A DNA stretch of 64,000 nucleotides from Sedimentisphaerales bacterium (GTDB lineage: Bacteria; Planctomycetota; Phycisphaerae; Sedimentisphaerales; SM23-30): assembly GCA_963663965.2 (NCBI GenBank), contig CAXXFK010000015.1, positions 1 to 64,000 of the forward strand, read 5' to 3'. Below, one piece after another: positions 29,725-47,875 of the stretch. A program made the translations under genes and the position numbers. The notes below the pieces were generated by a model. It was not told the DNA's origin. It saw nothing but the letters and a program-made list of their open reading frames with translations, and searched no databases. Position 1 is the stretch's first letter. The number at the start of each line of letters is the position of its first letter.

Positions 29725-30378
29725 TTAGCTTTCACTGTTTTCTATTTGAGCCTGATCCCCGGAAGGTTTTTCAGTTAATTCGGGTTCAATGGGAGCGCGG
29801 GCGACTGAAACCCTGGCAGGTCTCAGGGTACGCTCGTTCATTATATAGCCACAAGCCAATTCGCGAACAATGGTTTGAGGTGGCAGAACTTGACTTTCTT
29901 CCTGCATCAGCGCTTCGTGCCTGGATGGATCGAATGGGCAACCCGGCTGGATCTCAATCTTTTTCAATCCGGCCCCATTCAGAATACCCAGCAAATGGTC
30001 ATAGACAATCTTGACGCCATCGAGAACGGCGGCCACATCAGAATATTCCACTCCTTTTTCCAGCGCGTGATCAAAATTATCCAGCGCCGGCAGAAGTAAT
30101 CTGGCGAAATCCTCCCGGGTCTGCTGGATCGTCATTTCACTCTGGCGAGCGGTTCTTTTCTGATAATTCTGGAAATCGGCAGCCAGTCGTTGAGATTGTC
30201 TGAAAAGGTCATCGTACTTTTCTTTCCATTCATCCACGAGCTTCGTTTGCGGATTTTCAGATGATACCGGTTGAGGGGACTGAGTATCATCAGAAACATC
30301 CTGGCCGGACTGTTCAGATTGCTTCAAAATATGTTTGTCCTCTTTTTTATGTTTATGCTTTTTCATAACTGTCAACAT
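29725..30378 (-). CDS. grpE: nucleotide exchange factor GrpE (start may be ATG 30366)
   Basis: ADFQNYQKR, LLPALDNF, FDPSRHEA, GYIMNERTLRPARV. Confidence 0.95.
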   Translation of the reverse strand: MLTVMKKHKHKKEDKHILKQSEQSGQDVSDDTQSPQPVSSENPQTKLVDEWKEKYDDLFRQSQRLAADFQNYQKRTARQSEMTIQQTREDFARLLLPALDNFDHALEKGVEYSDVAAVLDGVKIVYDHLLGILNGAGLKKIEIQPGCPFDPSRHEALMQEESQVLPPQTIVRELACGYIMNERTLRPARVSVARAPIEPELTEKPSGDQAQIENSES

Positions 30379-30444
30379 CCATCAGACGGAACATTACTCA
30401 CCAGCGAGTCATTCCGGTCGAAATGATTTAAATTCCAGGAACTG

Positions 30445-31605
30445 TCAATTGTTTTTTTCTCCAGCAAGGAATTCTTTCATTTTATCCAAGAACTTTTTGC
30501 GTTCAGGCATTACAGAGATATTCTCGGTTTCAGCGTATTCACGGAGCAATTTTTCCTGTTTTTTATCAATCTTCTTTGGGATTTCGATTAATATCTGCAC
30601 ATGCAAGATCCCCCGCCGGTTACTTTGCAGATTGGGCAAGCCTTCGCCCCTGACATCAATCACCGCTCCATGCTGGGTACCGGGCTGAATTTCGATTTCC
30701 CGGCTTCCCGTAAGTGTCGGCACTTCGACGGCTCCCCCCAACGTCGCCAGGGTGAAACTGACTGGAACCCGAATGATCAGATCATCGGCATCACGGGTCA
30801 GAAACTCATGCGGTTGCACCCTCATATAACAATAGAGATCGCCATGAGGTCCTCCGCGACCACCGGGTTCCCCTTCGCCAGTGATGCGTACGGCCTGGCC
30901 ATCCCGAATGCCGGCAGGAATTTTAACTACGACTTTACGGGGTATTTTTACAACGCCTTCACCATGACACTTGCGACAGGGATGAGTGACAATTCGTCCC
31001 ATGCCATTACAGCGGGGACAGGTTGTGACCATGCGAAACAAGCCGCCCATACCGGACTGGGCCACCTGTCCCTGACCGCCACACTGGACACAGGCTTCCA
31101 GTTCATGGCCCGGTTCCGAACGCGTTCCCTGGCAATGGTCGCAGATTTCACGTCGTTTAAATTCAATAGTTTTTTCAGTACCGGTTAGAATTTCCTTGAG
31201 GGTCAAACCAATCTGAACTTCGATATCGTACCCTTTTGTTGCCTGAGTACGTGCCGCGCCACGTCGTCCACGCCCGCCCCCGCCAAAGATGCCCCCGCCA
31301 AAGATATCATCGAACATACTGAAGATATCGTCAAATCCCATATGACTGAAATCGTGCATGCCAGCGCCGCGCAAACCTTCATGCCCAAATTGATCATAAC
31401 GCTGGCGTTTTTCCTGATCACTGAGCACTTCATAGGCTTCGGCGCATTCCTTGAACTTCCTTTCAGCATCTTTATCATCGGGATTTTTGTCCGGATGATA
31501 TTTAAGCGCCATACGCCGATAGGCACGCTTGATCTCTTCTGTGGTCGCTTCGCGCGCGATGCCCAGAACTTCGTAATAGTCTCGTTTGGATGCCGTCATC
31601 GTCAT
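30445..31605 (-). CDS. dnaJ: chaperone DnaJ
   Basis: J domain HPD, G/F region, four CxxCxGxG-type repeats. Confidence 0.97.
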
Positions 31606-31651
31606 ATCCGTTCGTTGGTAGCCTTCGGCGACAAAGGAAACAATCTAAAAA

Positions 31652-31696
31652 TTCGACCGCGGCCTTGCTCACGAATAAGCAATAGCCGCGGTCGAA
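31652..31696 (-). terminator. intergenic hairpin between groEL and dnaJ (partial terminator or mRNA stabiliser)
   Basis: TTCGACCGCGGC / GCCGCGGTCGAA with inner TTGCT/AGCAA. Confidence 0.6.
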
Positions 31697-31708
31697 ACGC
31701 CAGTATTA

Positions 31709-33352
<1,644 letters not shown>

Positions 33353-33368
33353 TTATCATTGAACATCG

Positions 33369-33656
33369 TTAATCCAGCACAGCTAGAATTTCACTTTCGC
33401 GCAGAATGACAAATTTTACGCCATCCACTTCCACTTCTGTGCCTGCGTAGCGGCCATAGAATACTTCATCATTTTTCTTAACCGCAATCGGAGCACGCTG
33501 TCCGTTATCCAGCAATTTGCCGGGGCCCATTGCAACCACTTTGCCACGCTGGGGTTTTTCCTTGGCTGAATCGGGCAGGACAATACCACCGGCCGTTACT
33601 TCTTCAGCATCGCTCTGCTTAACCACAATTCTGTCATCCAAAGGTTTGATATTCAT
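33369..33656 (-). CDS. groES: co-chaperonin GroES
   Basis: [26 protein letters not shown]. Confidence 0.98.
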
Positions 33657-33722
33657 TATGTCAGACTCCTGTCAATTTAGTTTATAATTTTCGGTTATTT
33701 CAGGTTTGATTTTGTCCATCCA

Positions 33723-35405
33723 TTACATCATGCCACCCATGCCACCCATGCCTCCCATTCCGCCCATACCTCCCATGCCACCCATGCCGTCCATGTCGGG
33801 CATACCGGCGGCCGACTTTTCTTTGGGCTTTTCGGTAATCACGGCATCGGTGGTCAGCAATAAACCGGCCACGCTGGCGGCATTGTTAAGGGCGCTTCGA
33901 ACGACCTTGACGGGATCGATAACGCCAGCTTTAATAAGATCTTCATAGACCATCGTGTCGGCATTAAATCCGAAAGCAACTTTATCGGTAGCCGCAACTT
34001 TATTGACCACCACATTGCCTTCTTCGCCAGCATTTGACGCAATGGTCATCATGGGAACCTTCAGGGCATTGTATACAATCGTGGCGCCCATCTTTTCATC
34101 GCCCTTTAACTTCATGTTTTCGATCGCACTACGGCAACGCAACAGGGCAACGCCGCCACCAGGGACAATGCCTTCCTCAAGCGCCGCGCGGGTCGCATGC
34201 AAAGCATCTTCCACCCTGGCTTTCTTTTCTTTCATTTCCGCTTCACTATGGGCGCCAACGTACACTTCCGCAACGCCACCGGCAAGTTTGGCTAACCGTT
34301 CCTGCAATTTTTCGCGATCATAATCACTGGTCGTGATTTCGATCTCACGCCGGATTTGCTCGATGCGTCCCTGTACGGCTTTGCGATCAGCTTTTTCATG
34401 GACGATCGTCGTATTGTCATTATCGATGGTAATTTTCGTGGCGGTCCCCAGATCAGCCAGTCCGACACTTTCCAGATCAATACCCAGATCTTTAAAAATA
34501 GGCCGTGCGCCGGTCAGGATGGCGATATCCTGTAACATGGCTTTGCGCCGGTCACCAAAACCAGGCGCCTTAACTGCCGCAACGTTCAATATGCCGCGCA
34601 GTTTGTTAACCACCAACGTTGCCAAAGCTTCGCCATCTACGTCCTCGGCAATAATCAGCAGGGCGCGCTTGCTTTTCGCAATATTTTCCAGCAATGGCAC
34701 CAATTTCTGGGCAGAAGAGATCTTGTCCTCATGGATTAAAATCAGAGGATTATTCAGTTCACAGGTCATACTATCCGGATCCGTTATAAAATTGGGAGAC
34801 AGATAGCCACGATCAAACTGCATTCCCTCAACCACATCAACATAGGTGTCCATGGACTTACTTTCTTCCACGGTAATGACACCATCTTTACCGACTTTTT
34901 CGAACGCTTCGGCCATGATTTCGCCGATAGCGCGATCATTATTCGCGCTTATTGAAGCAATATTCACAATATCATTTTTGCGGGCAATATTAACGGGGGT
35001 GCTGATTTCCGAGAGTTTTTTGCCAACGGCATCCACTGCCGCCTTCATTCCCCGTTGCAAAGCCATGGCATCAACGCCGGCGGCAATCGCACGAAAAGCT
35101 TCCTTGAAGATCGCCTCGGTCAGGACGGTCGCCGTGGTCGTTCCATCACCAGCCACATCGGACGTTTTACTGGCAGCTTCTTTGACCAGTTTGGCACCGA
35201 TGTTTTCAACTTTGTCTTTCAATTCAATTTCTTCAGCCACCGTTACGCCATCCTTAGTAACCAGCGGGCCGCCCCAACTTTTATCGAGAACGACATTTCG
35301 CCCCCGAGGCCCCAAGGTGCTTTTCACCGCAGCGGCCAGTTTGGTAACGCCCCGAAGGAGAGCTTCGCGAGCTTCAATATCAAAAGCAAGATCCTTAACT
35401 GCCAT
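33723..35405 (-). CDS. groEL: chaperonin GroEL (copy with GGM tail)
   Basis: [17 protein letters not shown]-terminal (GGM)n encoded by a 9-bp degenerate tandem repeat near 33730-33790. Confidence 0.98.
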
Positions 35406-35817: not shown

Positions 35818-37224
35818 ATGAAAACACGAGAACTTGAAAATCTGGGCATTCCTTCCGGCGCCCCCATGGATGCCGTCAGACAAATGATTATCAAGCTTAG
35901 CAGTAATCGTACAGACCGTCCTAAAAAATCCGATTTAAGAAAAACTGTTCAAGATTTATCAGAAAATCCTGAAAAGTATTCCCAGGATGCTCTTTGGGGA
36001 CACGTCGCCAAAATGATTATTGAAACACGACAATGCCGATCACGTTTTGAAGATCGAGAGAAAAGCGCTCCCTGGGAACAATGGGGAAATGATTTAGATC
36101 CGGAATCAATCAAACAAATCGAAAATGCCTGTAAACTCCCCATCTCGGTGGCAGGCGCCTTAATGCCGGACGCCCATGTCGGTTATGGATTGCCAATCGG
36201 AGGGGTACTGGGCACAGATAATGCGGTTATTCCTTACGCCGTCGGGGTCGACATCGCCTGTCGGATGAAGATGACAGTATTGGATCTGCCTTCAAACGCA
36301 CTAACCGGCCAATCGGACCGCCTTAAAAACGCCATCCACAGCGAAACCCGTTTTGGCGTTGGCGCGACCTTTAAGAAACGCCGGGAACACAAAGTCATGG
36401 ATGAAAACTGGTCATTCAGTCCGATTATCCGTAAATTAAAAGACAAAGCCTGGGACCAACTTGGCACCAGCGGCAGCGGGAATCATTTTGTTGAATTCGG
36501 CACGCTCACTCTCGAACATGCAGGCCTTGGTCTGGAGGCGGGCACCTATATTGCATTGTTAAGTCACAGCGGCAGCCGAGGAGCAGGCAATGAAACAGCC
36601 ACCTGGTATAGTAAACTCGCAATGGATCAGCATCCGGAATTACCTCACGGATTAAAACAGCTAGCGTGGCTGGATTTGAACAGTCAGGCAGGCCAAGAAT
36701 ATTGGAAAGCAATGGAGTTAATGGGAAACTACGCTGCTGCCAACCATTTTCTGATTCATAAACATATTGCGCGCTATTTAGGGGTTGACGTTTTGCTTGA
36801 TATCGAGAATCACCATAATTTTGCCTGGAAGGAAGTTCATAATGGCCGGGAATTGATTATTCATCGCAAGGGCGCCACTCCCGCCGGCACCGGAGTAATC
36901 GGAATCATACCCGGTTCCATGGCTGCGCCAGGATATGTTGTCAGAGGGAAAGGAAATATTTTATCCTTAAATTCGGCCTCCCACGGAGCCGGCCGGGCCG
37001 TCAGCCGTAAAAAAGCCAAGGAGCAATTTAACTGGTATCAGGCCAGACAAATATTGGAGCGTGAAGGAATAACAGTCATATCAGCAGGACTTGATGAAGT
37101 TCCCATGGCTTATAAAGATATTCATACTGTCATGAACGCTCAAAAAGATTTAGTTGAGATTATCGCCCGCTTCGATCCGAAATTAGTCAAAATGGCGCCA
37201 GCCGGAGAACGGCCGGAAGACTAA
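35818..37224 (+). CDS. rtcB: RtcB family RNA ligase
   Basis: MPDAHVGYGLPIGGV, GVDIAC, GSGNHF, HSGSRG, HHN, HRKGATPA, SHGAGR. Confidence 0.96.
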   Translation: MKTRELENLGIPSGAPMDAVRQMIIKLSSNRTDRPKKSDLRKTVQDLSENPEKYSQDALWGHVAKMIIETRQCRSRFEDREKSAPWEQWGNDLDPESIKQIENACKLPISVAGALMPDAHVGYGLPIGGVLGTDNAVIPYAVGVDIACRMKMTVLDLPSNALTGQSDRLKNAIHSETRFGVGATFKKRREHKVMDENWSFSPIIRKLKDKAWDQLGTSGSGNHFVEFGTLTLEHAGLGLEAGTYIALLSHSGSRGAGNETATWYSKLAMDQHPELPHGLKQLAWLDLNSQAGQEYWKAMELMGNYAAANHFLIHKHIARYLGVDVLLDIENHHNFAWKEVHNGRELIIHRKGATPAGTGVIGIIPGSMAAPGYVVRGKGNILSLNSASHGAGRAVSRKKAKEQFNWYQARQILEREGITVISAGLDEVPMAYKDIHTVMNAQKDLVEIIARFDPKLVKMAPAGERPED

Positions 37225-37353
37225 GGCTGGGTGTAATAAATTTAAAGGATTGTGTGTTAACCTAGTATACATTTGATATATTCATATTTTTCATTGATAC
37301 TCTATTTATTATATATATTTTTATTACTATCTATCATTTAAGGATTTAGAGTT

Positions 37354-38451
37354 ATGATAATATTTTGGGTTATTCGTGCCGCATTTATTATGATGATTAT
37401 TGCCGCGGGTCTTTTTGGAATCCGATCTCTGTCAGGTCTTGAGCAATCCGGAACAGACGAAGGCCTCTCAGGAGATCTTAATACCGTCTACTGGTTATCC
37501 GTTTTAAGTTGTTTTCTGATTGTAATTATTGGCCTGACGGTAGATCTCCTGGTACCGCGTAAACGGATTTCCGCATTAGCCGGGGTGTTTTTTGGAATTG
37601 TGGTAGGCGTTTTAATTGGTCTGGCTTTTGGTTATGTCGTCGAAATGATCTATGAAACATACAACATAACAGAAAACAGTTATCCTGCGCTTTATAATTA
37701 TAAGATCCTCATAAAAATTCTAATTAATGTCTTATGTTGCTACTGGGCAGTTACTTTTGTCATGCAGACCAAGGATGATTTTCGGTTCATTATCCCTTAT
37801 GTCGAATTTTCCAAACAGACCAGGGGCACCAATCCTTTGCTGCTGGATACTTCAGTCATCATTGATGGGCGAATTGCAGATATAACCCTTACGGGAGTTT
37901 TCAATTCTCAGCTGGTCGTTCCGCGTTTTATATTAAATGAACTGCAATTGATCGCCGATTCATCAGACCGACTGAAAAGAAACCGGGGCCGCAGAGGTCT
38001 TGACATATTGAATAAAATGCAATTGGATGATCACATTGATATCGTAATCAAAGACATCGAGTTGACCACCCGCGAGCAAAAAGAACCCGTAGACCATAAA
38101 CTGGTCGCGGCGGCCGCCATATTAAACGGACGAATTGTCACCAATGACTTTAATCTGAACAAGGTATGTACCCTGCGTAAGATCCCTGTGATCAATATTA
38201 ACGATTTAGCCAGTTCCCTCAAGGCCGTGGTCCTGCCAGGCGAACAGATGCAAATCAAAATTGTCAAACAGGGGGATCAACCTGGCCAGGGGGTTGGTTA
38301 TCTGGATGATGGGACGATGGTAGTAGTGGACGAAGGACGCCACCACTTGGGAAAAACCGTGGATATCACCGTAACATCCGCACTACAAACCGCCGCCGGT
38401 CGAATGATTTTCGGAAAAATTGGATCTGACCGTAACGATGCTGAAAAATAG
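37354..38451 (+). CDS. membrane PIN/TRAM domain protein (YacL-like)
   Basis: Four N-terminal TM segments; LLDTSVIIDGRI, TNDFNLNKV, GVGYLDDGTMVVV, TSALQTAAGRMIF. Confidence 0.93.
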   Translation: MIIFWVIRAAFIMMIIAAGLFGIRSLSGLEQSGTDEGLSGDLNTVYWLSVLSCFLIVIIGLTVDLLVPRKRISALAGVFFGIVVGVLIGLAFGYVVEMIYETYNITENSYPALYNYKILIKILINVLCCYWAVTFVMQTKDDFRFIIPYVEFSKQTRGTNPLLLDTSVIIDGRIADITLTGVFNSQLVVPRFILNELQLIADSSDRLKRNRGRRGLDILNKMQLDDHIDIVIKDIELTTREQKEPVDHKLVAAAAILNGRIVTNDFNLNKVCTLRKIPVININDLASSLKAVVLPGEQMQIKIVKQGDQPGQGVGYLDDGTMVVVDEGRHHLGKTVDITVTSALQTAAGRMIFGKIGSDRNDAEK

Positions 38452-38487: not shown

Positions 38488-39405
38488 TTAATGGGGACGA
38501 CTCAAGAAACCAATCGTTGATTCCATAATCCGCTGGCGGAAGACATTTTGTCTGGTCGCTTCGCTTTGCTCCTTTAAATCATCCAGATTGGCCAGGCAAA
38601 ACCGGCATCCCAATTTGTTCAAATGGAAATCGACATAATCCTGCCATTGGGATTCCAGTGTACCAAGTAACCATTGCCCAATAGTACTGCGTTTTGGACA
38701 ACTGGGCCGAAGCGCCTCCCAGACATCGGTTAATAACGTTTCAAAGGAATCGGCCAACGGATCACCACAGAAATCTTTAGCTTCAATTAGACTATGAACC
38801 TGTTTAAGGCAACGATGTTTAATGACTGCAACGTTTTTTTCACTGATGTCCAGCATGGCGGCAATTTGCTGGTTGGCAATTCTGGCATAAAATACCAAAT
38901 CTACTATTTGCAGGTTACGAAAATTCAGGGAATCTTTTAGATCGGTTACCAGGGTTTGCAACGCTTGCAAAAGGGCTTCCTTGTGTAATTCGTGCTGTTC
39001 ATCCTGGCGGACATACCAGCTGGCGGTCGGTTCAGTACCGGCAATCCGGTCAAACATATCGCCGTGCGAGTCATTGTCATCAGCCCGATAAACATCATTA
39101 ACCAGACACAGATTTTTTTTGGATTGACGACCCCGATAGGTATCAATAATTTTTCGTCGCAAAATCGTAAACAGCCAGGTTTCGATACCGGCATCACCAC
39201 GATACCTGTCCAGAGATCGTAAAAAGGCAATAAAAGTATCCTGAACGACATCTTCGGCGTCGGCTTTCTGTCCCAGAGAAGATTGCGCAAAGGATAATAA
39301 TCGCCCTTGATAACGACCAACCAACTGATCCCACGCTTCGGAGGAACCCTGTTTAATTTGCTCTAATAAAAACTGTTCTGCCGGATTTAGTTCTGCCATA
39401 TCCAA
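38488..39405 (-). CDS. ECF sigma factor with C-terminal Cys/His (zinc-finger-like) extension
   Basis: AWDQLVGRY, DAEDVVQDTF, WLFTILRRKIID, region 4 IAAMLDISEKNV; tail CPKRSTIG...FHLNKLGCRFC. Confidence 0.88.
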   Translation of the reverse strand: MDMAELNPAEQFLLEQIKQGSSEAWDQLVGRYQGRLLSFAQSSLGQKADAEDVVQDTFIAFLRSLDRYRGDAGIETWLFTILRRKIIDTYRGRQSKKNLCLVNDVYRADDNDSHGDMFDRIAGTEPTASWYVRQDEQHELHKEALLQALQTLVTDLKDSLNFRNLQIVDLVFYARIANQQIAAMLDISEKNVAVIKHRCLKQVHSLIEAKDFCGDPLADSFETLLTDVWEALRPSCPKRSTIGQWLLGTLESQWQDYVDFHLNKLGCRFCLANLDDLKEQSEATRQNVFRQRIMESTIGFLSRPH

Positions 39406-39448
39406 ACACTCCGCCGCGAGTACCCGCCGAGTGTTTATACGGCCGGCC

Positions 39449-40918
39449 TCACGCCAGACACAAAAAAAATATCACTGCCGCAGCCAGTACCACACCAGCA
39501 AGCAGTTTTAATACCAAACTATAATATCCCTTTGTAGCATAATTCAGGAATATGTAAAGCAGAAAAATAAGAACCAGTAATCCGGCTAGTTGCAGTAAGT
39601 TTTTTATCCACATAGAGTTGTGAGCAGAATGTTTATCCAGAAAGAATTTAGACGCATTATGGATAATTTGTGGATTCACCTTCAACAGAATTGCTTCCCG
39701 GCAAATTTGACCGGCCGTTCCCTTTAATTGCTGCTTATAGGCATCTGCCAGGAGTCCTAATTCTTTTAACTGGCTTTCATTCAGATCCACTTGAGGATTA
39801 TGGATATCATAATCAACCTCCAAACTCTGCATAATCATAGGTTTCAGCCAATTGATTGCGTTGTTAACAGCCTGTTCATGTGCCAGTACTGGATTATCCG
39901 GAACGGCATCATTTGATCGGGCAACAAACCAGGTATAATCTTTTTTATCGTTGGCCAGTTCACCCAGAAGATTGACCCAGGGTTTATGGTAAAATGGGGC
40001 CGATCGCACAGCAAATCCATTATTATCATAAACAGCAACTTTGAGTTCGCCTTTGATCGGAATATAAACATTTTCACTCTCTATCTGACTGATTTTCCTC
40101 GAAATCATTCCGATTCTACCAGATTGATTTAGTGCTTCAAACGCATCAGGAGTATCCGGTTCAGCTATTTGTCCTTCCTGAACTTCCTGATTTTCGGGGG
40201 GACTTTGTTTTATTGATATAATTCCAAAATCGACTAATTCCTGAGGTGATACGGGTATTGGCAAATCTAACCGATTAACACAAACAGCAATTTGTATTTC
40301 GTCGGGTCCAATATCAGGAGCAGATGAACCTTGTTCATAAGTAAGCATTTCAACCTTAGCATCAGGGCAGTTACGAATGATTTCATCTGTCATGGATTCT
40401 AATATTTTTTGAACTACTATTACATTCTGCCTTGAAGAGTCAATGGGATCGTATGATAATTCCAAAGCCATATTACCGATAGCCCCCTGGGGTAATACCG
40501 GCATAATGTAGATTTTGGAAAGTGAATCGAGACCTTGAATAGTTTCTTGAAGGTGGTTACTCAGTTCATTTATCAACCCTACGGCCGCAGCCTGAATAGT
40601 CGGATAATTATCAGCAGGAAATTTACGATCGATAGCCTCATCCCAGATGGTTGGAGAGGTCATACTCGCTGAAACCACCTCTACTTCCGCCTGGTTATAC
40701 AATTCAACCGGTTGAGCGACTTTGTGTCTCATAGATAACCGTACGGACATGAGAACCACTATAACCGCGCCCAGAAATAATACGCTAACAGCAGTTATTA
40801 TCTTACCTTTTTTTGGCAATATGATCAGCGCTACGATTATACCAATCACGATAGCCAGGATGGGCCAAATTGCAAATACTATTTTGGGTTGCATAACCAT
40901 AAAGTAAACTCTTTCCAT
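39449..40918 (-). CDS. membrane protein (2 TM, large loop, 2 TM), paralog of the upstream gene
   Basis: TGATG overlap with the upstream gene; shared blocks PADNYP, RSAPF..KPW, QQLKGTAGQICREAILLK. Confidence 0.75.
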   Translation of the reverse strand: MERVYFMVMQPKIVFAIWPILAIVIGIIVALIILPKKGKIITAVSVLFLGAVIVVLMSVRLSMRHKVAQPVELYNQAEVEVVSASMTSPTIWDEAIDRKFPADNYPTIQAAAVGLINELSNHLQETIQGLDSLSKIYIMPVLPQGAIGNMALELSYDPIDSSRQNVIVVQKILESMTDEIIRNCPDAKVEMLTYEQGSSAPDIGPDEIQIAVCVNRLDLPIPVSPQELVDFGIISIKQSPPENQEVQEGQIAEPDTPDAFEALNQSGRIGMISRKISQIESENVYIPIKGELKVAVYDNNGFAVRSAPFYHKPWVNLLGELANDKKDYTWFVARSNDAVPDNPVLAHEQAVNNAINWLKPMIMQSLEVDYDIHNPQVDLNESQLKELGLLADAYKQQLKGTAGQICREAILLKVNPQIIHNASKFFLDKHSAHNSMWIKNLLQLAGLLVLIFLLYIFLNYATKGYYSLVLKLLAGVVLAAAVIFFLCLA

Positions 40919-42114
40919 CAAAATAATGTATGAATCCGTGATCCATTAATTCTTATTATAAACAGAGTCAGCAATATTATTGGAATGATCAATCCCAGAA
41001 TAACCCAAAAACCGCCGATTTTTTTTCGCATCCGCGTCGCATATTGCAATATCAGCCCAACTACTAATATCAGAAATAAAATACCCAAACAGGACGCCCA
41101 TGGAGCCATCGCTATGGCCCGATTCTGATGAGTGGCAACAGAGACAGGCGCGATCTGATCCGGATTCTTAATCAAAAGCGCCGCCCGCCAGATAGGACCA
41201 GATTCACCATCGATTCGCTGAACAAACTGGTCCTCTATTTTATCGGTTGCCAACCGATTGGTAAAATCATTGAGCTCAAATGAACCAGGATAATTGTTGT
41301 TAAGCAGAACACTCAAATTATCAAGCGCCTGTTGAACCGCTTCTTCTTTAGATGCACAAGCCGTACTGGAACGGGTGATTATATATTGCTGGTAATTTCG
41401 CAAAGTAGAATATTGGTGAAAATTATCCAGCCACAGATGATAATCGTATGGGACCGATCTCGACAGTTTTCCAGCAGGACCGGTCAGATCGAACATTACA
41501 TTACCCTGACAGGCTATAATCCGGCCATTTGACGCCGTTGACCGCGTCCTGTTACAGGATACCCTTATGGTCAGGGCTTCTGGATCCGTATTTCGAATCG
41601 TTGAGGAAGGAACCGCGGATTCCAGCAGAATCTTAACATCATCCTGATAGATGGTTTCCAAGGTTTGCGCCAGCGCCTGGAGGGTATCATATTTTAAAAG
41701 ATCATTATCGACAGATCCATAAATTTGAATGCGTGTTGGCAAGTGGGAGGAGGAATCGGCATTTTCCAGGCAAATCTGCCCAATCTGATCAGGCAATTGA
41801 TGAGCCAATCCGCGAGCAGCCGATTCCGGATTGGGATAGATATCCGCCGGTCTTTGATCGGCAATACCAGATGGTTTCCAGATATCCGGCAACTCTTCCG
41901 GGGCCTGGGAAAAATGATAATCGGCATGAATAGGACTAGACATTGTATCATCAACGATACTCGCCGTTCGAGAACGAGGCGCTGCGACAAAATGGAAACT
42001 AAATACTATGCCAAACAGCACCAGCAGAGTCAATAATCCCGCTCGCCATGATCTGACAAAGATCACTACAATCATAATAATGACCAGTAATTCCACAATT
42101 CCTATCGCCATCAT
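40918..42114 (-). CDS. membrane protein (2 TM, large loop, 2 TM)
   Basis: ATGA overlap with the kinase stop; PADIYP, RSVPY..HLW, QRIDGESGPIWRAALLIK. Confidence 0.75.
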   Translation of the reverse strand: MMAIGIVELLVIIMIVVIFVRSWRAGLLTLLVLFGIVFSFHFVAAPRSRTASIVDDTMSSPIHADYHFSQAPEELPDIWKPSGIADQRPADIYPNPESAARGLAHQLPDQIGQICLENADSSSHLPTRIQIYGSVDNDLLKYDTLQALAQTLETIYQDDVKILLESAVPSSTIRNTDPEALTIRVSCNRTRSTASNGRIIACQGNVMFDLTGPAGKLSRSVPYDYHLWLDNFHQYSTLRNYQQYIITRSSTACASKEEAVQQALDNLSVLLNNNYPGSFELNDFTNRLATDKIEDQFVQRIDGESGPIWRAALLIKNPDQIAPVSVATHQNRAIAMAPWASCLGILFLILVVGLILQYATRMRKKIGGFWVILGLIIPIILLTLFIIRINGSRIHTLF

Positions 42115-44753
42115 GATGATACCTTTTCTGGAGTTTCAATCGATTGATAACGATTTGTTTTCAACAAGCGTCGAGCTGGCCACGCTAACAGGACCAAAGA
42201 TGCCCCGGCCATAATACAAGCAAACACCATAGGAGCAACATCAATTTGATCCAGGAGCATATCAATGCCCCCGACAATCTGGCTTTCCTTGAACATCTGA
42301 ATGGCCTGGTCAGTAAATTGCCAGGGCATGGCTTCATTGATAATCGGCAGAACTATTCCCAAGATTCCTATGCCAACCACCGCCCTGATGATATGGAATG
42401 GGCCGCGATTCCGACGTCCAATGACAACAAAAGTCGCAGAGATAAAAAATAACAAAACAGTCGCAACCATGGTTACTCTTTCAACCAGATGAGGCCAGCC
42501 CTCGTAATTGTTGAACAGTTCTGTTTGGATTTCATTGGCCAGTTCCGGAATGGCTCTCTGGACGAATTCAGGCACGTTCAAAGCATTAACCAATCCCAAG
42601 GTAAACGCCATGAGGAGCAGTATGCTACCCATAAATCCAAGCAGTACCGATAAGGGTTGGAATTCGCCACCATAATAATAGGAAGCGTGGTCCCGTCTTG
42701 AGTCAAAAACTGCCGGATCGATTTGTGAACCGACTTCTGTCTTATAATCAGGGTGGTTGACCCAATTGGTCAAACGTCTTCCCTCACTATCACGAAACTC
42801 TCCCGCTAAGATCATGATGATATCGTATAACCAACCCAGGCCAAATAATCCACCGGTCAAAAGCCAGAGAATGGCGCTGCCGATTTTACCAACATAGATA
42901 CGATGGAAGCCCAATACACCAAAGAAGAAAGCAAGAATAAAGGCAACCAGACGTTTTTTAGGTGAAATTCGCGCTTGATTATACATCGAAACCGATTGGT
43001 ATTGCGGCATTGGAACGGGATTTTGCATAGGTTCATTCGTAGATACTCCAGCCACTGGCGGAGCGACAAACGACGTTTTTCCCGCAGGTTCTGAAACCAC
43101 CTGTCCCTTATAGTATTTTCGGATTTCCTGAGGAATATAAGGGGATGCCGCCTGTATGGCGAGTAAAATTCCCGCCAGTATCCCACCAACAATCGGCGGA
43201 TAAGCGACATCGAACATACCGGCGACGACCATACCTATTACTGCGGCCATCACAGAACGAGAGAGCGATATCCGCTGATCGCGGTCGGGCGCGGTCAATT
43301 TCCAGATATCGACGATCGAGAGTATGATCACGGCAAACGAAGCTTGTACAATGGTAAGTGGATAACGATCATTAGCACCAATGATAATGAGACAGGGAAG
43401 GAATCCCCCGATGACACCGAACGCAGATAATAAGATATTACGCAATGGGGTTGGTTCCATATTCCTGAGGATCGACCAGCGAGCCCATAAAATACCCATT
43501 GAGGCGCCTAACATATTCAAACCGATAAACAGAAAAGATATCCAGAACTCTTCTTGAAAGCCATTGGTAATCAAAGCAGTGCCGGCGGAAACACAAGCCA
43601 GCGTTATCAAAGCCAGTTGTTTACGCTGGTGAAAACCAAGCGGGTCGCCTGTTGCTGGCGGGGGCTGAGAGTGGCCAGTATTGCCGGCTTTCAACGTCTC
43701 AACCCGGGATCTGACTTTTTCACGCACCTGATCGCCAATTTTGCCTATTTTACGGCCGAAATTTTCCCAGGAACGGTCTTCAACATAATCCTGGGTGCCG
43801 GCGCCATCCGGAGGAGGAGTGACTTTTTGCCGCTTTGTTTTATTCCGCGCGTTTTGCATTTTTTCCGCAACCTTTTTGGCGATATCCGAGAGGTCGTCCG
43901 GAGAAAACTGTGAGATACTGTTACGGATATATTCACTGCCAAAGACATCTTCGAGCATGTCACGCACCGTATGATATCTTTCGTTGGGATCTTTGGCGAG
44001 TGCTTTGCGAATCACTTTGGCAAAAGAGGGATTGATGCCGGACAAGTCCGGTTCACTGGACAGATGTTTCATTAAAATTTCACCGGGACTGGCGCCGAAA
44101 TACGGCACCTGGCCGGTCAGCATTTCGTATAAAAGTATGCCCAGGGCATAAATATCAATGCTGCGATCATATTTTCCAGCCCCAATCTCAGGAGCCATGT
44201 AATGGACAGTACCTACGGTTATCGTCTGACCCGTATGGTGGTCAGCATTAATGATTTTGCTGAGCCCGTAATCCCCGATTTTCACATAACCATTTTCGTA
44301 AAAGATGTTAGCCGGTTTCAAATCTCGATGGACGATCCCACAATCATGGAGATAAGCCAGACCTTTGGCAATCTCGCGCAGAAAAAAGGCGGCTTTTTGT
44401 TCACCCAAACCATCGGGCGATTCATCCAGTAACTGCCGAAGAGACGGCCCCGCGACATATTCCATTACCACAAAAGGATCATTGTGCTCACTATACTTGA
44501 TATCGAAAATAGTAACCAGGTGCGGACTCTTGAGATTCATACACTGGCTGATACCACGCAATTCAATCTGACTGCAATTTTGTATGACTTTGAGGGCAAC
44601 CTGTCTGCCGCTATCACTTACCGCATAATAGACTTCGCCAAAGCCCCCGCGGCCAGCAGCCCGCTGAATCGTATAGCCTTCAAGCGGGCGATCTCCATAC
44701 TGATATTGATATAAATTTGTGCTCATTGCCTGTTTTATTCCTTCTTTTATCAT
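42111..44753 (-). CDS. Hanks-type Ser/Thr protein kinase with polytopic membrane region including a TM2 domain
   Basis: Start ATG 44753 (SD GGAGG); GRGGFGEVY, VALK, HRDLKPAN, DYG, GTVHYMAPE, DIYALG; TM2 segment SPKKRLVAFILAFFFGVLGFHRIYVGK. Confidence 0.93.
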   Translation of the reverse strand: MIKEGIKQAMSTNLYQYQYGDRPLEGYTIQRAAGRGGFGEVYYAVSDSGRQVALKVIQNCSQIELRGISQCMNLKSPHLVTIFDIKYSEHNDPFVVMEYVAGPSLRQLLDESPDGLGEQKAAFFLREIAKGLAYLHDCGIVHRDLKPANIFYENGYVKIGDYGLSKIINADHHTGQTITVGTVHYMAPEIGAGKYDRSIDIYALGILLYEMLTGQVPYFGASPGEILMKHLSSEPDLSGINPSFAKVIRKALAKDPNERYHTVRDMLEDVFGSEYIRNSISQFSPDDLSDIAKKVAEKMQNARNKTKRQKVTPPPDGAGTQDYVEDRSWENFGRKIGKIGDQVREKVRSRVETLKAGNTGHSQPPPATGDPLGFHQRKQLALITLACVSAGTALITNGFQEEFWISFLFIGLNMLGASMGILWARWSILRNMEPTPLRNILLSAFGVIGGFLPCLIIIGANDRYPLTIVQASFAVIILSIVDIWKLTAPDRDQRISLSRSVMAAVIGMVVAGMFDVAYPPIVGGILAGILLAIQAASPYIPQEIRKYYKGQVVSEPAGKTSFVAPPVAGVSTNEPMQNPVPMPQYQSVSMYNQARISPKKRLVAFILAFFFGVLGFHRIYVGKIGSAILWLLTGGLFGLGWLYDIIMILAGEFRDSEGRRLTNWVNHPDYKTEVGSQIDPAVFDSRRDHASYYYGGEFQPLSVLLGFMGSILLLMAFTLGLVNALNVPEFVQRAIPELANEIQTELFNNYEGWPHLVERVTMVATVLLFFISATFVVIGRRNRGPFHIIRAVVGIGILGIVLPIINEAMPWQFTDQAIQMFKESQIVGGIDMLLDQIDVAPMVFACIMAGASLVLLAWPARRLLKTNRYQSIETPEKVSS

Positions 44754-44769
44754 GATACAACCTCCCCCC

Positions 44770-46365
44770 TCATTCACGATCATACGGCGTAATAACCAAT
44801 GATGCCTGCCCAATTCGCAAGGGCTGCCCAATCGGCAAAGGCAATTCGCGATTCAGCGGTTGATCCCTGAGGGTTACCAGATCGCGTTTATCGCAAAACA
44901 GATGCCCATCCCGATACGACAGAGCAAACTGATCAGACCAGCCATCATCTCTGACATGCGAACCACTCCCGGGCCCAAAGACCAATTCTCTATTTAGTAG
45001 AACGGCATAGCGAATGTCTTGAGACGGCATACGAGCCGAAGCTAGGTCGAGCAGGGCCGTTGAACTGGCTGGATTCGGCTTTTTGAATTTCATTGATATC
45101 CGATGCGTCAGATCAATACGATCGTTATCATTTAAGATACTTTTATGGGTGGGCTTTTTGTTAACCATCACCGGTTGGTCACTCATTAAAAGGTAATCTT
45201 CTTCAAATCGCTCTATGGTTACAACAGCACCAGTCGCATCCGCCATAACGCCCAAATCCGGCCGTCTGGAAGAACTGATGGGACCTACCGATATGCGGTT
45301 TCCTGGAAATACCAGATAACTCCCGACACCATCCACCTGAATAACAAAACGCTGAGGCAATGCAGGCTCGTTGTGGACAGGTAACATTTCAACGTCTTTC
45401 ATTCTCTGTTGACTGGCCGAATCTGATAAGGACTCATTATGAACCGTGTCCTGCCAGCCTTTCATCGATTGTCCGGTGATCATCAAGCCCAAAGGGCCAT
45501 TTTTAAGCGCTTCAACAGCCTGTGCCGCCTGACGGGCATATTCTTCGGCCGTAGTGAGCCAGGGAGCATCAGGCAGCATAGAGCGGACTTGAGTGAGGAT
45601 TCTAGCCGCATCCTGAGGATGGCAGTGTTCCACAGCACATTGCGCATTGAGCAATTTCTGGATAATTCGTTGCAATTCCCGGAAATCCAGCATATCCGAA
45701 ACCACAGATTCACCCTGTTGGGCCATCATTTGAGCCTGATCAATCCTGCCTGACTGCAAGGCCAACCGCAGGCGGGCACAGAATTCGATACGTATTCTGG
45801 AAATCAGGACAGCCAATTCATCGTCCCGGTTAATCAAATCCCGCCAATTAGCCGACTTCAAGATCGATACAGTCAGATGTATATCTTTTTGCCGTAAAGC
45901 ATGATCCAGTTTTCTTAACAGCAGATTGAGTTTCTGGCGCTGGTCTGTCGCTTGATTCTGTAATACTTTCCCATAATCCTTGTCAACCGAAGCGATTAAA
46001 TTTTCACAGGCGGAAATATCGCCTTTCTTCAAGTGGTTTCTGGCCTGGGTTACCATAGCAACCTGATCAGCATTTTCAGCATGCTTGCGCAGTATCGCCT
46101 GGTTAATCCTGTCTTTTAAAACGGCAATTTCCGGATCGGAACCAGCCAGTTTTTCCGCTTTACAGCAATCGGCATACGCCTCTGAGCAGAGGTCATTTTC
46201 CAGATGTTTTTCAGCCCGATCAGCATAGGCTCGCGCCAATTGTCCGATAAGTTTTTGCGCTTTAGCGTATTCCTGAACATCTGCCTGTTCAATAATGCGG
46301 CAAGCTTCATCCAATCTGCCATCTTTTAATGCTGTCTCTGCTTGTTTTATTTGCAGGAACTTCAC
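44770..46365 (-). CDS. TPR-like helical protein with C-terminal FHA-like beta-sandwich domain(s)
   Basis: GTG start with SD AGGAG; helical repeats (AETALKDGRLDEA, ARNHLKKGDISAC); VDGVGSYLV...ISVG...VMVN...LNDNDRIDL. Confidence 0.7.
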   Translation of the reverse strand: MKFLQIKQAETALKDGRLDEACRIIEQADVQEYAKAQKLIGQLARAYADRAEKHLENDLCSEAYADCCKAEKLAGSDPEIAVLKDRINQAILRKHAENADQVAMVTQARNHLKKGDISACENLIASVDKDYGKVLQNQATDQRQKLNLLLRKLDHALRQKDIHLTVSILKSANWRDLINRDDELAVLISRIRIEFCARLRLALQSGRIDQAQMMAQQGESVVSDMLDFRELQRIIQKLLNAQCAVEHCHPQDAARILTQVRSMLPDAPWLTTAEEYARQAAQAVEALKNGPLGLMITGQSMKGWQDTVHNESLSDSASQQRMKDVEMLPVHNEPALPQRFVIQVDGVGSYLVFPGNRISVGPISSSRRPDLGVMADATGAVVTIERFEEDYLLMSDQPVMVNKKPTHKSILNDNDRIDLTHRISMKFKKPNPASSTALLDLASARMPSQDIRYAVLLNRELVFGPGSGSHVRDDGWSDQFALSYRDGHLFCDKRDLVTLRDQPLNRELPLPIGQPLRIGQASLVITPYDRE

Positions 46366-46486
46366 CGCCGTGCTCCTGTTATTATCGATTTTTAAAAATT
46401 ATATTTTATCGATTATTAATCAGATAACCAAATGAAATCCATCAGCCATCATCACTTACTGCCAGAATGGCAGTCTCATAAAGCAA

Positions 46487-46527
46487 TCCAGACGAAACGC
46501 CGGCTTCCGGCCGACATTTCGTCCGGA
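46487..46527 (-). terminator. 18-bp RNA hairpin downstream of the PspA-like gene
   Basis: Minus strand TCCGGACGAAATGTCGGC-CGGAA-GCCGGCGTTTCGTCTGGA pairs fully with three GU pairs on this strand only; followed by TTGCTTT. Confidence 0.65.
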
Positions 46528-46542
46528 CCAGTCAGCAAATGG

Positions 46543-47385
46543 TTATTGAACAGTTTGCTGACAGGCAAGAGCATTTTCTTCTGAAGGAGTTCGATCTTCT
46601 GAGGGTTGCTCCGGTGCAAAATAATTACTTATCTGTTCAACCAGTTCATTGTCGCTAATTGGTTCATCATCATAAATAACCGGTTCAATAAAACGGCTTT
46701 CATGAGCCAGAACTCGTTCAGCTACATCGAGGCGCTTTTTGATCTGGCCGATCAATTTTTCAGTCTGGGCGATTTTGCTGTTATCAAAATCGACTTTGGA
46801 ATTAGTTGAATTGGCCTTAACCAAACGATATTGACTTTCCAGGGCATCAATTTTATCCTGGAGTAAGAGTTTCTGGCTGCGAGTCTTTTCAAGGGCATCT
46901 AACGCCGTTTGCAATGCACTTTCCCTGGTTGTCAGCAATCGCTTTTTGCTTTCCAGTACCAGTTGAGCCTCTTTAAATCTCTCAAAACGACGGACTAATT
47001 CCACCTTGAGATTTTCACGGTTGTATTTATTGTTGTTAACCGTTAACACCGGCAAAGGAGTTTCCATGGCATCAGTCATTTTCTGGATCTGTATCTTTTC
47101 AGTTTCCAAGGGTTTAACACTGTTGTCGATATCAGCCCTCAAGGCTGCGATCTCGACTTCTTCCTGGGAAATGAGCTTAATATTCGCATGCATTTCCGGA
47201 ATGATATTCTCGAGCAGATCACGTGCCCGTTCCAGTTCAAATTCGATCGAGACAGAATCCTTAGCTATATCTTGAATATGGGTAACAGAAGTGTGCATGT
47301 AGCTCTTTAAATTGGTTCCAAATAACAGACCGCCAGCTACAAGGGCAATCAGAACCACAATAACGATTGTTTTTACCAGTTTCAT
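46543..47385 (-). CDS. coiled-coil protein with N-terminal TM/signal, PspA/IM30-like
   Basis: ATG 47385 with SD GAGGAG; hydrophobic N-terminus, then about 200 aa of heptad-rich helix; PspA-likeness is an inference. Confidence 0.7.
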   Translation of the reverse strand: MKLVKTIVIVVLIALVAGGLLFGTNLKSYMHTSVTHIQDIAKDSVSIEFELERARDLLENIIPEMHANIKLISQEEVEIAALRADIDNSVKPLETEKIQIQKMTDAMETPLPVLTVNNNKYNRENLKVELVRRFERFKEAQLVLESKKRLLTTRESALQTALDALEKTRSQKLLLQDKIDALESQYRLVKANSTNSKVDFDNSKIAQTEKLIGQIKKRLDVAERVLAHESRFIEPVIYDDEPISDNELVEQISNYFAPEQPSEDRTPSEENALACQQTVQ

Positions 47386-47875
47386 GGCGACTCTCCTCAA
47401 AATAGGAACAATATGAGAATTTAAATGACTAAGAACACAAAAGGGTTGTCGCCCAAAGATTTCCTATATTTCCAAAAAAACCATACAAAGCATTAAAATT
47501 TCACAGATTTGACACCGCACCAAGCCCAACCAAATCCCAACTTATTTAATAATAATATCTTACAAACATTTAGGTCATGTTGACACAATTTCATCAATAC
47601 GCATATTGGTTATCAATTTACGCAATATGGCGTTTCTATTCATTCGATATATATCTATGATATCTAATATAGAAGGCTGTACAGATTCGATGCGATTCAG
47701 GCAATTCTTTACAGAATGGCCGGAATGGAACACGGAAGCAAACGTTTCAAAAAGCATTAACCAAAGTCAAGTTTGGTCAGTTCGCAAGGGCATGGAACAC
47801 CTTTGTGATAATTTTAGTTGCATTTTATCTGTATATGCTTTGCGACTACTACGCAGTGGCAGTATTGCTCGCATG

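Follow-up and report, generated by a model that had tools for sequence, protein, structure and literature searches.

We describe a conserved signalling cassette of Planctomycetota from a Sedimentisphaerales bacterium (assembly GCA_963663965.2, contig CAXXFK010000015.1), analysed in a stretch of 64,000 nucleotides (the window). The cassette lies on the minus strand between 38488 and 47385 and encodes an anchored helical protein (CC), an FHA-like protein, a membrane Ser/Thr kinase, two membrane proteins of one family (M1 and M2) and a sigma factor of the extracytoplasmic function (ECF) type, fused to a zinc domain. As the best explanation of this gene set we propose, with confidence slightly better than even, a circuit in which the kinase acts through the zinc domain on the ECF factor, which in turn would transcribe from a promoter in front of CC. 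The features on which this proposal draws are as follows.

46543-47385, minus strand: gene 1 (CC), 280 amino acids, the first gene of the cluster of six open reading frames (ORFs)
44770-46365, minus strand: gene 2 (FHA-like), 531 amino acids
42111-44753, minus strand: gene 3 (Ser/Thr kinase), 880 amino acids
40918-42114, minus strand: gene 4 (M1), 398 amino acids
39449-40918, minus strand: gene 5 (M2), 489 amino acids
38488-39399, minus strand: gene 6 (ECF and zinc domain), 303 amino acids
38758-39399, minus strand: N-terminal ECF sigma part of gene 6 (sigma2 and sigma4)
38488-38757, minus strand: C-terminal zinc domain part of gene 6, anti-sigma-like
46489-46533, minus strand: strong hairpin 3' of gene 1, its limits taken from the fold
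47445-47473, minus strand: bipartite ECF-type promoter motif upstream of gene 1

The first-pass annotation of this DNA had suggested that these genes form a signalling unit, and had named synteny across Planctomycetota as a check. A survey of 60 loci around CC, annotated with profiles made from the same loci, supports a conserved unit: gene order is conserved in two permuted forms, CC-(FHA)-kinase-M in 28 of the loci (with the ECF gene next in 14 of them) and ECF-zinc finger-CC in another 20, while contig ends interrupt 2 loci and neither order is present in the other 10. Since 28 and 20 of the 60 homologous loci keep an order, gene linkage in the cassette exceeds chance. Extension of second-order loci upstream revealed FHA, kinase, ECF, zinc finger and CC in 10/10 cases, with M detected between FHA and kinase in 4 of them, so that the first order, circularly permuted, roughly yields the second. 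In 30 more loci with at least 6.5 kb of downstream sequence, CC, kinase and M occur together in 27, and ECF is present in 20 of these 27; the faster filters used for this set often missed FHA. The CC profile matches in 75 of 301 sampled Planctomycetota genomes, the CC family comprises 1658 representatives at E 1e-10 or better, and in the ESM Atlas CC and M match only unnamed Planctomycetota clusters.

In a phylogenetic tree, the 40 ECF factors from both orders group in a single clade, apart from five other ECF factors of the window genome (98/95), and on this tree the fused or split state of the ECF and zinc domains switches at least three times. The zinc domain is present, even if unlinked, in every one of the 46 genomes whose CC match is strong (264 bits or more), compared with none of the 29 genomes with weaker CC matches; seven genomes have the zinc domain without CC. 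Several points temper this co-occurrence as support for the circuit: the cut-offs were set after the tables had been seen, related genomes are not independent, the zinc profile was partly built from 20 of those same 46 genomes, and the zinc gene is not linked to the CC locus in most genomes of one family.

Some variants of the cassette deserve mention. It is split in two genomes, G128 (loci L036 and L128) and G200 (L037 and L127), where one site carries CC and M and a second site FHA-kinase-M-ECF(zinc); in G128 a kinase gene also lies beside CC and M. Family f9 (L129-L131) has FHA, kinase and a fused ECF, with the zinc domain in six and a CC match in none of its seven genomes. In the second order, the gene behind CC often encodes a well-conserved membrane protein other than M, with about 265-280 amino acids (L048:11669-12463, L050 and L061-L064); its copies are 54-83% identical to one another and have no BLAST relation to M.

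CC is assumed to be the output of the circuit. It begins with a hydrophobic anchor (residues 3-21) followed by a helical body in the order H0, H1, beta-hairpin, H2/3, H4, H5, which resembles PspA and ESCRT-III; the H0-H5 helix order has been described for ESCRT-III (PMC7619361). An AlphaFold2 model (mean predicted local distance difference test score, pLDDT, 82.8) places the anchor helix at residues 2-21 and further helices at 25-44, 47-107, 123-195, 203-230 and 246-256, with the beta-hairpin between helices 47-107 and 123-195. Five core helices with the H1-H2/3 hairpin in 200-250 amino acids are the layout expected of the PspA/ESCRT-III superfamily, and the model agrees with it. When CC was compared by hhalign with the PspA homologs of its phylum, the match reached 78.8% probability over 194 columns, the N-terminus of PspA falling right after the anchor. 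With a deeper alignment of 188 sequences the scores were 33 and 38, and none of the controls, which were reversed or block-shuffled sequences (50 of the latter), went above 23. The view that the first protein is PspA-like is supported by this profile match above its controls, and we consider CC a probable, if not a secure, homolog of PspA. The Foldseek check named in the first-pass annotation is equivocal: Vipp1 and PspA take 7 of the top 11 rows for the CC model over about 200-240 columns, but at E values of 0.015 to 0.08, hence 0.015 at best.

Against this assignment stand several results, some of which also favour an alternative view of CC. Pfam PspA (PF04012) has no match in the CC protein and is absent among the 25 families listed for 41 CC homologs. 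The hhalign probability falls to 32-62% with the deeper alignment, and Foldseek gives no match at E 0.001 or better. In a VIA search generic coiled coils rank higher, with Vipp1 in 23rd and PspA in 26th place (PspA 4whe, 122 residues aligned, root-mean-square deviation 2.2, Z 9.6). The alternative is that the circuit operates as proposed but CC is a generic anchored coiled-coil hairpin, serving as a periplasmic scaffold or co-sensor with no part in membrane remodelling. It accounts for the non-specific structure matches and the missing Pfam match, and also for a hydrophobic anchor of predicted N-in topology that is unlike the amphipathic H0 of PspA (PMC7619361). Set against it are the collinearity of the profile match, which runs from H0 to H4 over 163-194 columns at scores well above the controls, and the prominence of PspA and Vipp1 among the leading Foldseek rows over most of the body. 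We regard this alternative as rather unlikely. A sequence search of the PDB with CC returned coiled-coil noise and nothing useful, and PF04012 has no match anywhere in the window genome. In one family, a short PspA-like gene is present in all 14 genomes searched (L074-L089); its frames are mostly about 180-230 amino acids long, match only the N-terminal part of PF04012 and lack the promoter motif described below.

The orientation of CC was addressed with 146 homologs. All of them have Lys or Arg before the hydrophobic stretch, the charge balance favours N-in in 101 and the opposite in 10, and AxA (3) and lipobox (1) motifs are rare. Because of these charges and the scarcity of cleavage motifs, CC is predicted to be an uncleaved anchor with its body outside the cytoplasm, and a periplasmic body is fairly likely. 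Taken further, CC could represent an undescribed planctomycete branch of the ESCRT-III/PspA superfamily, with an inner-membrane anchor and a periplasmic, polymer-forming body, which would be the target of a cascade of kinase, zinc anti-sigma and ECF factor acting through its own promoter, and which would shape or repair the invaginated inner membrane from its outer face. We offer this proposal tentatively and consider it less likely than not. In the literature searched, no description of a periplasm-facing topology for ESCRT-III was found; a relative of this kind as the target would, if real, extend the known topology of the superfamily.

The proposed link between CC and the ECF factor is a promoter motif, a new element first found in this analysis. 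A de novo search of the 220 nucleotides before CC in 50 loci (two near-duplicates removed) returned a bipartite ECF-type motif, approximately [CG][AC]A[TG]A-N15-CG[AT][AC]T, located just 5' of CC in both gene orders, with a score of 725 compared with 498-531 for three shuffles and a 15-nucleotide spacer in 45 of the 50 loci. The window copy, GGAAATA-N15-CGACAAC (47473-47445, minus strand), ends 59 nucleotides before the ATG of gene 1. Of 53 loci absent from training, 39 carry the motif with a score of 12 bits or higher, whereas each control (opposite strand, shuffles, wrong spacers) reaches this score in 1 of 53; this held-out set, mostly of one family, is what remained of 69 loci after 11 near-identical Gimesia-like and 5 truncated loci were left out. 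The motif is rare before the kinase gene (2/33 loci), was not found before the ECF gene (0/34) and precedes FHA in 5 of 10 second-order loci. Since the motif accompanies CC in both gene orders, CC would be its conserved target. From these sequence patterns it is likely that the cassette ECF reads the motif before CC. The first-pass annotation had raised possible autoregulation by the ECF factor, and the conserved predicted promoter before gene 1 makes it probable that the regulators are autoregulated through that site.

The path from this promoter to the regulators would lead past the hairpin behind gene 1. Its presence, reported earlier, was confirmed: the stem is 20 bp long, the region folds at -51.9 kcal/mol (z -6.5), and none of 200 shuffles was equally stable. 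By a crude shuffle, 15 of the 26 same-order loci have a hairpin 3' of CC with z at or below -2, and that of gene 1 is likely an attenuator or mRNA stabiliser. The six minus-strand ORFs were likewise found to have the gaps and overlaps claimed for them: the FHA stop lies 16 nucleotides from the kinase ATG, kinase and M1 overlap in ATGA, M1 and M2 in TGATG, and M2 is 43 nucleotides from the ECF gene with a TTG start or 49 with the likelier ATG start. A second hairpin, over the ribosome-binding site and ATG of the ECF gene (39395-39444, minus strand, z -3.4), was considered as a general control element and rejected because it is not conserved, being seen in 1 of 13 loci, in the window genome only.

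Whether the ECF factor controls genes beyond the cassette is a separate matter. In the window genome, 27 sites reach 13 bits with the motif spacer, compared with 7-18 for other spacers, an approximately twofold enrichment that leaves about half of the candidate sites expected by chance. The top-scoring site precedes an NfeD-SPFH/Band-7 operon (L139, G000:C30:238733-240316, minus strand), a point in favour of the circuit; other candidates lie before ABC transporters, a MoxR ATPase and another ECF gene. The site before nfeD scores 11.5 bits in the single close relative carrying the system and 13.6, 8.3, 7.3 and 6.9 bits in four genomes without the cassette ECF. The exact pattern is not enriched in close relatives over controls (7 vs 12, 9 vs 9 and 2 vs 6). 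In one family there are 24 pattern matches vs 3 in controls, and by a crude test 18 of the 23 sites not belonging to CC fall inside long ORFs. A genome-wide regulon is therefore not established, given the roughly twofold enrichment, the location of most family sites within ORFs and the absence of enrichment in close relatives. These results weigh against an ECF-driven response as we propose it, as do the 13.6-bit site in a genome that lacks the cassette ECF and the absence of the motif before canonical pspA genes (0/19). In genome G429 (L190 and L191), matches precede genes for an S49 peptidase and a DUF697 protein, plausible envelope-stress genes, and here too the pattern is not enriched over the control.

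The N-terminal part of the gene 6 product matches Pfam Sigma70_r2 and Sigma70_r4 and TIGR02937. Residues 215-303 of this product correspond to a protein of about 100-150 amino acids in relatives, and because this domain is a separate gene in many of them, it is probably a fused anti-sigma factor. The earlier statement that the cluster lacks a separate anti-sigma is literally correct for the window, but it passes over this anti-sigma-like domain within the ECF gene itself. In the 20 second-order loci the zinc domain is encoded at position +1 of ECF in 19 and fused in 1, and it is fused to ECF in nine first-order loci and in the window. One Trp, Cys, His, Cys and Cys are invariant in 42/42 zinc domains, the ligands being spaced C-x24-H-x5-C-x2-C (C234, H259, C265 and C268 in the window protein). 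A Ser or Thr occupies the column of T295 in 41/41 domains and that of S233 in 41/42, and many of the free zinc proteins carry an additional CxxC unit. Weak zf-HC2 matches were obtained for 6 of the 20 members, the best E value being 0.0015. We consider it likely, from this anatomy, that the zinc domain inhibits the cassette ECF, although its Hx5CxxC spacing departs from the canonical Hx3CxxC of zf-HC2 and a sequence comparison with solved anti-sigma factors in the PDB gave no match.

Of the remaining proteins, the kinase is the best defined; in the Pfam and NCBIfam scans, families were assigned only to it (Pkinase, E 5.5e-50; TM2, E 3.7e-17) and to ECF, and genes 1, 2, 4 and 5 have no family above the cut-off. 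Its catalytic motifs are intact (GRGGFG, VALK, HRDLKPAN, DYG and an activation-loop Thr) and its hydropathy profile has about 12 hydrophobic segments, in agreement with the polytopic Ser/Thr kinase described previously. The gene 2 product consists of a helical, TPR-like N-terminal part (the TPR match is weak, E 0.015) and a degenerate FHA-like region. Phosphothreonine binding by FHA domains canonically involves the residues G-R and SxxH. Among 17 gene 2 homologs, a Pfam FHA match is found in 4 (the window protein is not one of them), G-R in 1 and SxxH in 6, while the window protein reads SVGPI and has neither. A PDB sequence search with the region gave no matches. The absence of G-R and SxxH, itself a point against phospho-signalling through this protein, makes a phospho-reading role doubtful; that of a scaffold is the likelier one for the FHA-like protein.

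M1 has two pairs of transmembrane segments flanking a soluble domain, and M2 likewise has two pairs with a conserved loop domain. Both match a single family profile, and BLASTP aligns them in two collinear segments (E 2e-5 and 3e-5). Because they align collinearly and two M genes occur only in the window (0/28 other same-order loci), the twin genes appear to be a local duplication; the two proteins noted earlier as twins are thus paralogs, but their twin state is not a property of the system. As this state is limited to the window genome, the core of the cassette is five genes plus the zinc domain. A model of the conserved M domain, the loop domain of M2 (pLDDT 84.1), has as its best Foldseek match Lpp20 of Helicobacter pylori (5ok8, E 7.7e-3, probability 0.93, a weak match), followed by Tip-alpha and HP1454; a VIA search with the M model matched only C-terminal helices and a Pfam search with M found no family. 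Set as it is between two pairs of transmembrane segments, the modelled domain is likely an extracytoplasmic sensor.

Putting these parts together, we propose the following sequence of events. The Lpp20-like membrane protein likely informs the many-pass membrane Ser/Thr kinase, which would free the ECF factor from its fused zinc-finger, anti-sigma-like domain. The freed ECF factor would then likely transcribe from the promoter before the anchored CC, itself probably related to PspA and ESCRT-III. In the gene order of the window, transcription from this promoter would also reach the regulators by reading through the hairpin, yielding much CC and a slight positive feedback. The signal is probably envelope stress, and membrane remodelling as the output is our inference. 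For the kinase step there is a precedent in PknB, which frees SigH and SigE by phosphorylating their zinc anti-sigma factors (PMC8999054), and action of the kinase on the zinc domain here, for which T295 and S233 are the candidate sites, is conceivable, though we put it somewhat short of even. By analogy, a PknB-type phosphorylation of the anti-sigma would fit the anatomy of gene 6 better than an EcfP-type mechanism.

A different arrangement would make the zinc domain itself the sensor of redox state or metal, as in anti-sigmas of the RsrA/RshA type or in CorE-like extensions; the kinase, FHA and M would then work alongside it, perhaps in assembling CC, without control over ECF. The four invariant zinc ligands and the second CxxC unit of many free forms would suit such a sensor; soluble zinc anti-sigmas are usually sensors of oxidative stress (PMC8999054), and several CC-FHA-kinase-M clusters of Planctomycetaceae have no ECF. 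Yet the kinase gene lies 1-3 genes from ECF in both orders, and also in genomes where CC was not found, the Ser or Thr at the T295 column is invariant outside the zinc ligands, and CC, if its body is periplasmic, would be beyond the reach of a cytoplasmic kinase domain; together these make the arrangement improbable. The least probable alternative, which we largely discount, is that the kinase switches ECF on by phosphorylating sigma region 2.2 directly, in the way PknT acts on EcfP (ECF43): such a mechanism has been hypothesised for kinase-linked planctomycete ECF groups (PMC7826278) and some ECF homologs do have Ser or Thr directly before the Glu-Asp pair, but the window ECF has an intact DAED (residues 47-50), D50 being invariant and E49 kept in at least 90% of 22 homologs, whereas ECF43 lacks DAED and typically has no anti-sigma (PMC7826278, PMC8999054).

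An upstream sugar operon ends at an intrinsic-terminator-like site (47905-47881), apart from the six-gene cluster. On the other side lie genes for an RNA ligase, RtcB, and for a membrane protein of the PIN-TRAM type (35818-38451, plus strand); the PIN-TRAM gene converges on the ECF gene at a distance of 36 nucleotides, with no terminator-like site between them. Beyond these, at 29725-35405 on the minus strand, lie what we take, by eye from the translations, to be a pair of groEL-like genes with dnaJ-like and grpE-like genes after them.

The cassette may bear on how planctomycetes construct and protect their heavily invaginated inner membrane, and for the kinase-linked planctomycete ECF groups the texts consulted name no target. 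Because the cassette comes with a specific promoter motif, a putative anti-sigma that has candidate phospho-sites, and a target gene that is conserved, the proposed circuit is directly testable.

The cassette as a whole is apparently undescribed and made of known kinds of parts; no description of the full set was found in the literature searched, which covered few subscription papers. The pair of ECF factor and kinase is probably already catalogued, since the gene order of the cassette fits the description of ECF61, the closest described group, which is also attributed to Jogler 2012. ECF61 is a planctomycete-only group of six proteins whose kinase, with at least five transmembrane helices, is usually encoded at -2, and its promoter motif is stated as not conserved (Casas-Pastor 2021, PMC7826278 supplement). 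Compared by description only, the likeness extends to a planctomycete ECF beside a kinase with at least five transmembrane helices and to the kinase-M-ECF order of 14 of the 60 loci, with the kinase at -3 in the window because M is duplicated there. The printed description of ECF61 differs from the cassette in naming no anti-sigma, zinc extension, FHA or PspA-like neighbour, and the accessible part of the supplement makes no mention of PspA, FHA or TM2.

With PspA, Vipp1 and LiaH the cassette shares the H0-H5 order, a weak collinear profile match and an operon that combines an effector with membrane proteins and a regulator (PMC11237479, PMC7619361). It differs in that CC adds a hydrophobic anchor, a predicted periplasmic orientation and a beta-hairpin at the H1-H2 turn, and in that kinase and ECF take the place of PspF, LiaRS or ClgR; the main text of Ravi 2024 (PMC11237479), as far as available, mentions neither "Planctomycet" nor FHA. 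The actinobacterial groups ECF48, ECF52 and ECF53 also carry a C-terminal zinc anti-sigma fusion, but their extensions have transmembrane helices and are thought to be proteolytically removed (PMC8999054), whereas the domain described here is soluble, about 90 amino acids long and linked to a kinase. The comparison with EcfP and PknT of Vibrio that had been made in the first-pass annotation holds, as for EcfK and PknS of Xanthomonas, for an ECF gene beside that of a membrane Ser/Thr kinase (ECF43), but fails on mechanism: EcfP needs phosphorylation because it lacks DAED (PMC8999054), and since the cassette ECF keeps DAED and is accompanied by an anti-sigma-like domain, a phospho-switch in sigma2.2 would not be needed. 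Like the cassette, the PknB-RshA-SigH and PknB-RseA-SigE systems of Mycobacterium tuberculosis combine a Ser/Thr kinase and an ECF factor with a soluble zinc anti-sigma (PMC8999054). What differs here is the union of the parts in a single cassette, a polytopic kinase that bears a TM2 domain, Hx5CxxC as the zinc spacing and, in the window genome, the fusion of the zinc domain to ECF. The cassette would also offer a second route by which a co-encoded kinase may control an ECF factor, through the anti-sigma and not through sigma2.2.

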